A stretch of 64,000 nucleotides of DNA from an uncultured bacterium (GTDB lineage: Bacteria; Poribacteria; WGA-4E; WGA-3G), in NCBI GenBank assembly GCA_964523645.1, contig CAZGAW010000001.1:3305-67304 (forward strand), given 5' to 3'. The notes below the pieces were generated by a model. That model made no database searches. It saw nothing but the letters and a program-made list of their open reading frames with translations, and was not told where the DNA came from. Below, in pieces: positions 54,966 to 57,896 of this stretch; positions within the stretch are counted from its first letter, which is position 1, and every line of letters starts with the position of its first letter. The translations under genes were made by a program, and so were the position numbers.

Positions 54966-55712
54966 TTAGCCGTGAATAGCGTTAGCGAATGCTTTCATTA
55001 ACTCAGGGGATCCATTTTCTTCAAGGATGTTGCCTGTGACGATGAAATCTGCACCGGCTTCCACCTTTTTAGCGGCAATATCTGGCGTGCGGATGCCACC
55101 ACCGACGATTAGCGGGATGTTGATTTGGTTTTTCACTGTTGCGATCATCTCATCTGGAACGGCGTGTACAGCACCACTTCCCGCCTCCAGATATACCATC
55201 TGCATACCCAGATACTGTGCCGCTAACGCGTGTGGTCCCGCAATGTCTGGTTTATCGCGCGGGATGGGCATTGTGCCACTCATAAATTCAACAGCGGTTG
55301 TGTTACCGCTCTCAATAAGCATGTAGCCAGTCGGAATAGGGGTAAGTCCATAACGTTGAATCCGCGGTGCTGCTTTGACCTGTTCGCCAATGAGATAGTT
55401 CGGGTTGCGTCCACTTATAAGACTAATATACAGAATCGCGTCAGCGTGGGGAGTGAGGTGCGTCGAATCGCCCGGAAATAGCACCAGCGGCAGCTGCGTT
55501 TCTTGCTTGAGTGCTTTCGCGATGAGGTGAAAATCGTTCGTTAAAAAACTGCCACCGAGCAATATCGCGTCTGCACCCGCCTGCTCAATTTCACGCGCAA
55601 GCTTGACGCATTTTTCAGGTTCACACTGCTCCGGATCAATTAGAACGAAATAACCAGCATGGTGTTTTTTCAATACCTCATAGAAGTAGTTAAGAACCCA
55701 ATTTGATCTCAA
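54966..55712 (-). CDS. Geranylgeranylglyceryl-phosphate synthase family (GGGPS/PcrB)
   Basis: FVLIDPE..., GADAILLGGS, LFPG, SLISGRNPNYLIG, YLEAGSGA and PLIVGGGIRT are the TIM-barrel GGGPS/PcrB signature blocks. Confidence 0.8.
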   Translation of the reverse strand: MRSNWVLNYFYEVLKKHHAGYFVLIDPEQCEPEKCVKLAREIEQAGADAILLGGSFLTNDFHLIAKALKQETQLPLVLFPGDSTHLTPHADAILYISLISGRNPNYLIGEQVKAAPRIQRYGLTPIPTGYMLIESGNTTAVEFMSGTMPIPRDKPDIAGPHALAAQYLGMQMVYLEAGSGAVHAVPDEMIATVKNQINIPLIVGGGIRTPDIAAKKVEAGADFIVTGNILEENGSPELMKAFANAIHG

Positions 55713-55830
55713 ATGCGATTTTCCTTCTGTGCCTCTGTTAAATCTCGGTTTGAATGCTATTCCATTTCTGATGCCGGCGGCTTATGAATCATCTCGATTT
55801 TAAGAATTTTATCACATTTATGACGGTTTG

Positions 55831-57051
55831 TCAAATTCTGTGTTGTCGTGTTAGTTCGTAAAGTAGAACGCCCGCCGCAACGCCTACATTCAGCGATGAT
55901 TGTCCAGACGCCATCGGAATGCGAACTAATTCTGTACACCGTTCGCGTGTTTCGATAGAGAGACCGGTATTCTCGTTGCCTACGACAATAGCGGTAGGGC
56001 ACGGTAATTCTATCGCATACAACTCGTTGTTGGCACCTGCTGTGGCACCCAATACACACCAACCTGAGGCTTGGAGTGCTTCAATTGCGATGCCGATATT
56101 TGGTGTGTGGAATAACGGTAAACGCCCGACTGCCCCTCGGGAGGCACGAATGCAGTTTTTATGAAAAGGGCTCGCGCCTGAACCACTCAATAAGACGGCG
56201 GATACGCCTGCCGCGTCTGCTGTTCGTAATGTCATGCCAAGGTTATCAGGATTTCCGATATTCTCTGCGATGAGCAATATACAATTTGGACTAAAATGGA
56301 AATTGAGACTTTTAGATGCCGAAAGGAAGTTGGGGTAACTGAGATGAACCGAAGCGATTATGGGTGGCACAGGTCGCGTCGTCGTGATTGCCCCCATCAC
56401 GCCATCGTTTACCTGATAGGAAGATAGATTTTCTGCCACTGCCCGCTTGAGAAGTGCTCTTCCTTCGGGTATCGTCGTAAATCCAGCCGTATAGAGAAGT
56501 GCCTCGATCGGAAGTCCGTCTTCCACTGCTCGTTCTACCATCAGTTGACCTTCGACGATAAATTGGGAGTGTTCTAATTTTCCTTTCAAAGAGGCTAATT
56601 TGCGAACATCTGAAACGATTGTATCCTTCCGTTTCGAGACAATTCGCTGTTCCGCTCTTGTGCTACTGCCGCGTTTGGTACCTCGATACAAAGCCCCCGC
56701 ATCGGTCTGAATTACGTTTCCTTCAAAAACATCGTGAATTCTATTTTCCATCCATTTTTCGGTAAGTTGAAACAGACCTGTGTATCTACGTGGAAATGCG
56801 TTCAGGAGTTCTCTCAAGCTCCGTTCCGTTGTTGTTGTGAGATGAATCCGGTAGTCAGCATCAAATGTGTCCGTTCCCTCCAACAACATAACGCCATCAA
56901 GCTGCTGCCAACCTGCCGTAAAAACCTCGTAAGTGGGGTGCCATTTACCTGTTTTACAGAAGGCATCATACGCCTGCTTAAAACGAGAGACGGCATCTGC
57001 ATCCGGGATATCTTTCTCCAAGAAAGTAATGATCTTATCGTAGTTTGTCAT
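55831..57051 (-). CDS. SpoU/TrmH-family RNA 2'-O-methyltransferase with an unassigned ~190-aa N-terminal domain
   Basis: C-terminal motifs NPDNLGMTLRTADAAGV, IVVGNENTGLS and IPMASGQSSLNVGVAAGVLLYE. The start MTNYDKI overlaps the UbiA-family stop by 4 nt (ATGA). Confidence 0.75.
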   Translation of the reverse strand: MTNYDKIITFLEKDIPDADAVSRFKQAYDAFCKTGKWHPTYEVFTAGWQQLDGVMLLEGTDTFDADYRIHLTTTTERSLRELLNAFPRRYTGLFQLTEKWMENRIHDVFEGNVIQTDAGALYRGTKRGSSTRAEQRIVSKRKDTIVSDVRKLASLKGKLEHSQFIVEGQLMVERAVEDGLPIEALLYTAGFTTIPEGRALLKRAVAENLSSYQVNDGVMGAITTTRPVPPIIASVHLSYPNFLSASKSLNFHFSPNCILLIAENIGNPDNLGMTLRTADAAGVSAVLLSGSGASPFHKNCIRASRGAVGRLPLFHTPNIGIAIEALQASGWCVLGATAGANNELYAIELPCPTAIVVGNENTGLSIETRERCTELVRIPMASGQSSLNVGVAAGVLLYELTRQHRI

Positions 57052-57896
57052 AGAAGTGTTCCGAGATAGATTGCGCCCAGACCAACGAATATATCCCACT
57101 TCATCCACTGTTGAATAGTTGCGCAACTTGCTCTGGAGGCATCTTGACCCAGGCGGATTGCCAAACCGATCAACACGAAATCAACACCGATTAGCACAAG
57201 AATTAAGTAGTGCCATGAATACCAACCGAATAAATAGGGGATGGGGCTAAACAGAATAACAAATGCCATGAAGCTGATGGCTGTCCACACAGCAATCCGT
57301 GGGTTGAGCGTCGCAAGCGTTTTTACGCCGTTTTTTAGATCGCCTTCTGTATCCTCAAGGTCTTTGACGATCTCCCGCGCTGTTGTGAATAGAAATGCAA
57401 AGATTGCTGGAACGAGTGTGCCTTGTACCGAATCTATCGCTACACCACCAGCAATGAAGGTCAAACCCGTTAATCCACTGACGACGACATTCCCGACAAA
57501 AGGGGTGCGCTTCAACCAGAAAGCATAACTCACAAGCGCAACGGACACGAGAATAGCGATGCCTGTCGCATTGCTATTGATAAGTGCCCCTAACCAGATA
57601 CCGATGACAATAAGGACTATCGCAAAAATTAGCGCATTGACACGCCGAATGCGTCCAGAAGGTATCGGTCGCTTCGGACGATTGATTCTGTCAATGTTGT
57701 AATCACAATAATCGTTTATGGCGTTTCCCGCGGAAAGTAAAACAAATGCGGAGGCAGAAACCAGAAGGAGTCGGAGGTCAATGATGTTTTCCATTTTCCC
57801 TTGACTGGCAAACATTCCGCCAAGCCATGCGGAAATGAAGGCGATAATTCCATTCAGTGGACGCGCCAACTCAAGACAAGCGATCAATGTCTTCAT
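57048..57896 (-). CDS. UbiA-family prenyltransferase, digeranylgeranylglyceryl-phosphate synthase (DGGGPS)-like
   Basis: [24 protein letters not shown] (first Asp-rich motif) and [14 protein letters not shown] (second motif). About 8 TM helices; 282 aa. Confidence 0.7.
   Translation of the reverse strand: [282 protein letters not shown]

Follow-up and report, generated by a model that had tools for sequence, protein, structure and literature searches.

Bacteria of the Fibrobacteres-Chlorobi-Bacteroidetes (FCB) group are already known to carry the archaeal-type ether-lipid pair of GGGPS (geranylgeranylglyceryl phosphate synthase) with DGGGPS (digeranylgeranylglyceryl phosphate synthase), which Coleman et al. 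2019 found in all 12 FCB phyla that they sampled (PMC6431249). The pair of Cloacimonadota made unsaturated archaetidylglycerol in Escherichia coli without CarS or geranylgeranyl reductase (GGR); bacterial CdsA can substitute for CarS, and CdsA, PgsA and related enzymes process digeranylgeranylglyceryl phosphate (DGGGP); the source of glycerol-1-phosphate (G1P) is undecided in Cloacimonadota as well (Villanueva et al. 2021, PMC7852524). Here we describe a corresponding gene pair in a 64,000-nucleotide stretch of DNA, called the window below (C1:3305-67304), from a metagenome-assembled genome (MAG) of a sponge-associated bacterium of the candidate phylum Poribacteria (4.67 Mb in 169 contigs, 84.6% complete). 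Close homologues of the proteins encoded in the window carry the name Candidatus Poribacteria at NCBI. Judging from the sequences, we think it likely that the two genes, encoding a group II GGGPS and a UbiA-family prenyltransferase of the DGGGPS type, form a pair that has been passed down vertically throughout Poribacteria and whose enzymes make the core of an archaeal-type isoprenoid diether lipid, in line with an earlier note on this DNA that had proposed ether-lipid synthesis.

Like the pair of Cloacimonadota and other FCB bacteria (PMC7852524, PMC6431249), the locus combines a group II GGGPS, 50-57% identical to FCB sequences, with a nearby DGGGPS-type UbiA in a diderm host that has normal bacterial lipid genes and no CarS. 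Unlike the FCB pair, it belongs to a Poribacteria host, has a SpoU gene inserted between the two lipid genes, and sits between lpxD on one side and grpE on the other; a GGR and a second UbiA paralogue are further parts of the ancestral Poribacteria cluster, and the window's genus has lost the GGR. With archaea the locus shares a GGGPS that is ~43% identical to that of Methanothermobacter thermautotrophicus (4mm1) and has the same catalytic triad and an aromatic anchor, as well as a UbiA protein that aligns from end to end with the DGGGPS of Methanocaldococcus jannaschii (6m31), including all Asp-rich motifs. It differs from archaeal systems in its bacterial host, with a background of fatty-acid lipids and lipid A, and in having neither CarS nor an archaeal-type G1P dehydrogenase (G1PDH) above the model cut-off. 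Bacillus PcrB has the same Pfam family (PF01884) and TIM-barrel fold, but the window's GGGPS reaches only ~32-35 bits against PcrB structures and models, falls in group II and not Ib, and has a DGGGPS-like partner enzyme that is missing from Bacillus.

What appears to be new is the phylum, which lies outside the FCB group: the NCBI taxonomy lists Poribacteria as Bacteria incertae sedis. The nearest GGGPS sequences from outside Poribacteria (45-57% identity) are those of FCB-group and related candidate phyla, including Zixibacteria, Cloacimonadota, Ignavibacteria, Bacteroidota, Marinimicrobia, Calditrichota, Fibrobacteria, Latescibacterota, Gemmatimonadota and others, and among 80 loci examined a UbiA gene adjoined GGGPS solely in Poribacteria and Cloacimonadota. 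Poribacteria are not mentioned in the text or accessible supplements of PMC7852524 and PMC6431249, and we found no literature linking the phylum to GGGPS or DGGGPS.

Identification of a group II GGGPS

The GGGPS gene (54966..55712, minus strand) starts with TTG and encodes 248 amino acids. All of the sequence blocks by which it had first been noticed are present (LIDPE at residues 24-28, SGRNP at 100-104, YLEAGSGA at 174-181 and GGGIRT at 204-209), and the protein scores well above the cut-offs of Pfam PcrB PF01884 (165 bits, cut-off 24), the NCBIfam 'GGGP' equivalog TIGR01769 (225 bits, cut-off 162) and NF003198 (293 bits, cut-off 247). Its best solved structure is 4mm1, the archaeal group IIa enzyme of M. 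thermautotrophicus (204 bits), and the GGGPS of Flavobacterium johnsoniae (4jej) gives 181 bits, compared with 31 bits for the group I enzyme of Archaeoglobus fulgidus (2f6u) and 31-33 bits for heptaprenyl PcrB structures. The TIM-barrel protein is accordingly a group II GGGPS and not a PcrB-type heptaprenyl enzyme (204 and 181 bits versus ~32 for heptaprenylglyceryl phosphate synthases), and in a phylogenetic tree it nests among bacterial group II sequences, so that the assignment made in the earlier note stands.

In enzymes of this family a Tyr/Tyr/Glu triad serves catalysis and G1P stereospecificity, and a Thr is typical of group II (PMC9385802). Across eight Poribacteria sequences aligned with the archaeal enzyme, the matching residues Y130, Y174, E176 and T226 do not vary; the triad corresponds to Y134/Y178/E180 of M. 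thermautotrophicus GGGPS, and the group II Thr sits in the phosphate-binding loop. At the aromatic-anchor position, Phe143 is aligned to Trp141 of the archaeal enzyme, a possible sign of a hexamer. Leu86 fills the position proposed to limit chain length, where M. thermautotrophicus has Val86 and F. johnsoniae Ile90, and offers an indirect hint of a preference for a C20 donor.

Identification of a DGGGPS-type UbiA

The UbiA-family gene (57048..57896, minus strand) encodes a protein of 282 amino acids that matches Pfam UbiA PF01040 with 148 bits. Its best NCBIfam models are of the DGGGPS type (225, 215 and 168 bits, below the equivalog cut-offs of 269, 296 and 353), while the EboC, ChlG, UbiA and MenA models give at most 84 bits. 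The protein aligns over its full length with M. jannaschii DGGGPS 6m31 (131 bits, E 7e-37), and the next family, chlorophyll synthase, reaches 36 bits. Both Asp-rich motifs reported for this gene were recovered, the first at residues 61-69 and the second, KDLEDTEGD, at residues 178-186. Residue for residue, DYNID at 65-69 (D-x3-D), Y124, K129 and D179/D182/D186 align with D66, D70, Y125, K130, D180, D183 and D187 of the M. jannaschii enzyme, among them its five catalytic Asp residues.

In a tree of a small reference set that held no MenA, UbiA or CyoE sequences, families which were compared by hidden Markov model (HMM) scores only, the protein groups with M. jannaschii DGGGPS and the GGGPS-adjoining UbiA proteins of Cloacimonadota (SH-like approximate likelihood ratio test, SH-aLRT, 87), apart from ChlG and from a second Poribacteria paralogue, UbiA2. 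Structure scores and tree thus agree that the protein is DGGGPS-like rather than a MenA, UbiA or chlorophyll synthase, as had been proposed from its motifs.

Distribution and co-loss of the pair

We surveyed 81 Poribacteria species genomes and found GGGPS in 66 of them. The DGGGPS-type UbiA occurs in the same 66, and both genes are absent from the same 15. Genomes without the pair include all nine of genus g9 and one of g11 (93-99% complete), four of g2 and two of g1, the window's own genus, and the two genes have been lost jointly at least three times (in g9/g11, in the g2 group, and in g1, which shows two different states). In four such genomes (G075, G078, G065 and G028) the locus reads bamA-skp-lpxD-SpoU-grpE-dnaJ-prmA, with UbiA and GGGPS each gone from one side of the SpoU gene. 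Perfect co-occurrence, together with co-deletion around a SpoU gene that was kept, indicates that GGGPS and UbiA are one functional pair, and this co-loss is the strongest evidence in our analysis that both enzymes serve one pathway.

The same observations bear on whether UbiA acts on another acceptor (for example a quinone, a pigment or a cell-wall lipid carrier) and lies near GGGPS by chance, in which case GGGPS alone would yield a monoether. Such a role would be in keeping with the scores of UbiA below the DGGGPS equivalog cut-offs, and the function of UbiA-family proteins is notoriously hard to assign from sequence (PMC6431249). However, chance proximity accounts poorly for a match of 66/66 presences and 15/15 absences with independent co-deletion around SpoU, the protein scores 131 bits against M. 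jannaschii DGGGPS versus 36 for the next family, and the same adjacency is found in Cloacimonadota, where the activity has been demonstrated. We therefore regard a separate acceptor as very unlikely.

The identity of GGGPS falls with taxonomic distance, from 92% within the genus to 54% in other classes, and the Poribacteria sequences form a single clade (SH-aLRT 88) nested among group II sequences of the FCB group. The Poribacteria copies of the DGGGPS-type UbiA likewise form one clade (SH-aLRT 83). The identity gradient and the single clades fit a pair that would be old in Poribacteria, vertically inherited and repeatedly lost. Within the window's genus, the ratio of nonsynonymous to synonymous substitution rates (dN/dS) is 0.05-0.09 for GGGPS and 0.06-0.11 for UbiA, compared with ~0.07 for dnaJ and ~0.03 for lpxD; both lipid genes are under strong purifying selection comparable to that on dnaJ.

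Ancestral cluster and loss of the reductase

Comparison across the phylum suggests that the ancestral Poribacteria cluster was lpxD-UbiA2-UbiA-GGR-GGGPS. In two genomes of deep lineages (G002 and G006), a 474-amino-acid protein is encoded between UbiA and GGGPS, in which a 2x[4Fe-4S] ferredoxin domain is fused to a GGR. Against TIGR02032 (cut-off 159) this protein reaches 213 bits, and the model that it fits best is digeranylgeranylglycerophospholipid reductase. The GGR gene lies directly upstream of GGGPS in families f2, f3, f4 and parts of f1, following the SpoU gene where that is present. UbiA2 is found between lpxD and UbiA in these same lineages. It occurs in 24 of the 81 genomes, solely ones that have the pair; intact copies are carried by the deep lineages, f2, g7 (of f3) and f4, and within the window's genus by a few genomes.

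In the window itself, a decayed remnant of UbiA2 lies between UbiA and lpxD (58029..58449, minus strand). A tblastn search with an intact homologue of 305 amino acids recovered it as three fragments (residues 5-17, 25-109 and 238-271), the first in another frame, with ~128 residues lost between the last two and one TGA stop inside the match. As to the reductase, we considered a flavoprotein on contig C98 as an alternative GGR and rejected it, since a halogenase fits better and its score is below the GG-red-SF cut-off.

In the GGR genes of relatives we observed an in-frame TGA at 11 loci of f1-f4 (including L034:6616-7806 in G032, L038, L037, L069, L071, L077, L084, L091 and L120), at the position where the deep-lineage homologue has TGC for the Cys of PVRCAEG. 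About 15 genomes have a GGR with this single TGA and no other stop. At seven examined loci, conservation covers 42-44 codons upstream of the TGA, with the FAD-binding GxGxxG among them, and exactly 351 codons downstream of it; both sides are under purifying selection, with dN of 0.05-0.2 and saturated dS. A 5-bp hairpin, with compensatory changes in two of its pairs, begins 16 nt past the UGA. Of the 81 Poribacteria genomes, 79 have SelA, and the window's genome has tRNA-SeC and encodes, on contig C9, a radical SAM (seleno)protein with a CUAEP/CCAEP tail (NF040546, 611 bits), from which we conclude that this genome uses selenium. On these sequence features, the GGR of the relatives probably contains selenocysteine; we found no report of a selenoprotein GGR in the literature.

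Proposed pathway and its product

In the pathway that we favor, the soluble group II GGGPS would link geranylgeranyl from geranylgeranyl diphosphate (GGPP) through an ether bond to glycerol phosphate, yielding geranylgeranylglyceryl phosphate (GGGP), and the membrane-bound DGGGPS-type UbiA would add the second geranylgeranyl chain to give DGGGP. GGPP would be supplied by the genome's single short-chain IdsA-like prenyl-diphosphate synthase, and activation for head groups would fall to the bacterial CdsA because no CarS is present. Family assignments, catalytic residues, joint distribution, joint loss and purifying selection are seen in the sequences; we infer the substrates, the glycerol stereochemistry, the head groups and the membrane abundance in this scheme. 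With GGR lost in the window's genus, the product there is probably an unsaturated lipid of the digeranylgeranylglyceryl phosphate type, and, given that the pathway has been lost several times, it is likely an accessory lipid and not a bulk membrane lipid.

Of the further pathway parts that the earlier note had named, the genome contains two polyprenyl synthases and a G1PDH-like gene that scores below its cut-off, but no CarS was found in it: the sole PF01864 match is the bacterial CdsA, and it was rejected as a CarS candidate on that account. One of the synthases (contig C41) looks like a long-chain enzyme, with small residues before its first aspartate-rich motif (FARM). The other (contig C140) has IdsA/GGPP synthase as its best models and a Trp at position -5 of the FARM, the archaeal type-I chain-length limiter position (PMC9385802). 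Homologues of the C140 enzyme are present in all 75 order-level genomes, even those without the pair, which marks it as a general short-chain synthase.

The AraM/EgsA-like (G1PDH-like) dehydrogenase is encoded outside the window (C129:4909-5952, minus strand). Its best model is G1PDH NF002022 (128 bits versus a cut-off of 413), and among structures it scores highest with 3ce9 (79 bits), followed by solved G1PDH enzymes (67-71 bits) and GldA (at most 59 bits); its homologues are named G1P dehydrogenase by JGI and iron-containing alcohol dehydrogenase by NCBI. It has 26 strong matches among the 81 genomes, in four genera. Two genomes without the pair have the gene and ~40 with the pair do not, and the neighbors of the gene, a membrane dipeptidase and a beta-propeller-like protein, are unrelated to lipids. 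We therefore rejected it as a dedicated G1P partner of the pair. A weak search for tetraether-type enzymes (Tes/GDGT-MAS or Mss), for which NCBIfam may hold no model, recognized none of seven open reading frames (ORFs) with CxxxCxxC and a length of at least 380 amino acids.

Several of these results weigh against a membrane diether lipid. The pair can be dispensed with, as its loss in at least three lineages shows; UbiA falls short of the DGGGPS equivalog cut-offs; GGR is not recognizable in the window's genome and is also missing in nearly all of its genus; CarS was not found; the distribution of the G1PDH-like gene does not track that of the pair; and the chain-length specificities assigned to GGGPS and the prenyl synthase derive from single positions only. 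Some of the same facts would suit a different fate of the product, in which the pair makes a minor non-bilayer prenylglycerol derivative and not a membrane phospholipid. This might be a mono- or diether that is dephosphorylated or modified in another way, comparable to the heptaprenylglyceryl phosphate of Bacillus, acting as an envelope-associated or signalling lipid. Loss of the pathway in 15 of 81 species, disappearance of both the reductase and UbiA2 in the window's genus (a few genomes with intact UbiA2 aside), the lack of CarS, a G1PDH-like gene that is not co-distributed, and a cluster that always adjoins lpxD-skp-bamA all speak for such a derivative. Yet the enzyme chemistry would be the same and only the fate of the product differs, bacterial CdsA, PgsA and related enzymes are able to act on DGGGP (PMC7852524), and across Poribacteria no phosphatase or acetyltransferase shows a consistent link with the pair; the GNAT-like domain of the SpoU protein has no acetyl-CoA motif, and that protein persists without the pair. 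On balance we judge a minor derivative unlikely, and prefer the diether phospholipid.

SpoU-type methyltransferase between the two genes

The gene between UbiA and GGGPS (55831..57051, minus strand) encodes a SpoU/SPOUT 2'-O-ribose rRNA methyltransferase of 406 amino acids. Its longest ORF extends to 57126, and the start conserved in the alignment is the ATG at 57051. The protein matches Pfam SpoU_methylase PF00588 (120 bits) and MRM3-like_sub_bind PF22435 (35 bits), corresponding to a SPOUT domain and an L30e-like substrate-binding domain, and scores 122 bits against the RlmB equivalog, below its cut-off of 160. The predicted fold matches the 23S rRNA 2'-O-methyltransferases AviRb, RlmR and RlmB (Foldseek E 1e-16 to 1e-15).

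We also observed an extra N-terminal domain in this protein (residues 1-130; 56662-57051, minus strand), with a GNAT-like fold predicted at a local distance difference test score (pLDDT) of ~85-90. Its top 50 Foldseek matches are all GNAT acetyltransferases, matched weakly (best E 4e-4, TM-scores 0.33-0.57), and the domain lacks the usual acetyl-CoA motif Q/R-x-x-G-x-G/A. The fusion of a GNAT-like domain to an RlmB-type methyltransferase appears to be restricted to one Poribacteria order.

The earlier note had described the lipid genes as coupled to this RNA methyltransferase, and the overlap on which it drew is real, with the UbiA stop (TGA, 57050-57048) and the SpoU start (ATG, 57051) sharing ATGA. 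Taken further, this would make UbiA and SpoU a translationally coupled operon in which SpoU is functionally tied to the lipid genes, and the order UbiA-SpoU-(GGR)-GGGPS is indeed kept in families f1-f3. Across the phylum, however, the SpoU-type gene is present in 63 of 81 genomes and absent from f4 and from deep lineages that have the pair. Conversely, of the six species in the window's family that lack the pair, five keep it (G078, G028, G029, G065 and G075; in the sixth, G049, SpoU is absent as well). The ATGA overlap is not conserved, being replaced by a 30-nt gap in G032, and the fold is that of a standard 23S rRNA 2'-O-methyltransferase. Since the gene can be absent with the pair present and kept without it, and the overlap varies, the coupling is positional and not functional; we rejected a functional one on the distribution and the lpxD-SpoU-grpE loci, and give a SpoU tie next to no credence. 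SpoU would instead have been inserted between UbiA and GGGPS in one order-level clade and act independently of both.

Genomic context of the cluster

On the minus strand the gene order is bamA, skp, lpxD, a 0.58-kb spacer, UbiA, the SpoU-type gene, GGGPS, grpE, dnaJ and prmA. The ORFs and Pfam matches of the window place the lipid genes and SpoU in the same orientation as grpE, dnaJ and prmA downstream and lpxD, skp and bamA upstream, and the presence of lpxD, skp and bamA marks the host as diderm. The upstream outer-membrane block (lpxD-skp-bamA; 58481..62721, minus strand) comprises lpxD at 58481-59533, with Pfam LpxD and hexapeptide domains, and bamA at 60265-62721, both on the minus strand, and its synteny is kept across the order. 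Downstream, grpE-dnaJ-prmA (51947..54946, minus strand; Pfam GrpE and PrmA) is likewise syntenic. The gene arrangement of the window is found again throughout the phylum, and contamination of the MAG was ruled out by the same cluster with identical flanks in closed, single-contig Poribacteria genomes.

Within the region, the closest match to a sigma-70-like promoter (TTGACA-17-TAAAAT, plus TG; 55806..55834, minus strand) lies ~90 nt upstream of GGGPS and agrees with the consensus at 11 of 12 positions; it is a consensus match only, and the number of such sites in the region is not above that in shuffled sequence. Between the GGGPS stop and grpE, at 54930-54949, there is an 8-bp inverted repeat (GTGTGCTT-TCA-AGCACAC). 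It is not followed by a T-run on the gene strand and does not match the controlling inverted repeat of chaperone expression (CIRCE). Upstream of grpE-dnaJ, the repeat might form a hairpin with a role in regulation or processing.

Discussion

Bacterial genes for archaeal-type ether lipids matter for the "lipid divide" and for the interpretation of archaeal lipid biomarkers. The uncultured Poribacteria are abundant symbionts of sponges, and a pair that is phylum-wide and under selection widens the range of candidate bacterial producers of isoprenoid glycerol ethers. We put forward a more far-reaching picture only tentatively, as one that may well fail in some of its parts: that Poribacteria, as diderm bacteria outside the FCB group, ancestrally had a complete envelope-linked diether operon, lpxD-UbiA2-DGGGPS-GGR-GGGPS; that its GGR contains selenocysteine in most order-level lineages; that the window's genus, now without the reductase, would place fully unsaturated lipids in a mixed membrane; and that part of the isoprenoid ether-lipid signal of sponges could be bacterial and not archaeal. 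The phylum also provides natural experiments, with species that have or lack the pair and species that have or lack the reductase, so that the role of the lipid is testable by comparative lipidomics, and the contrasts among these species show the functional interdependence of GGGPS and UbiA.

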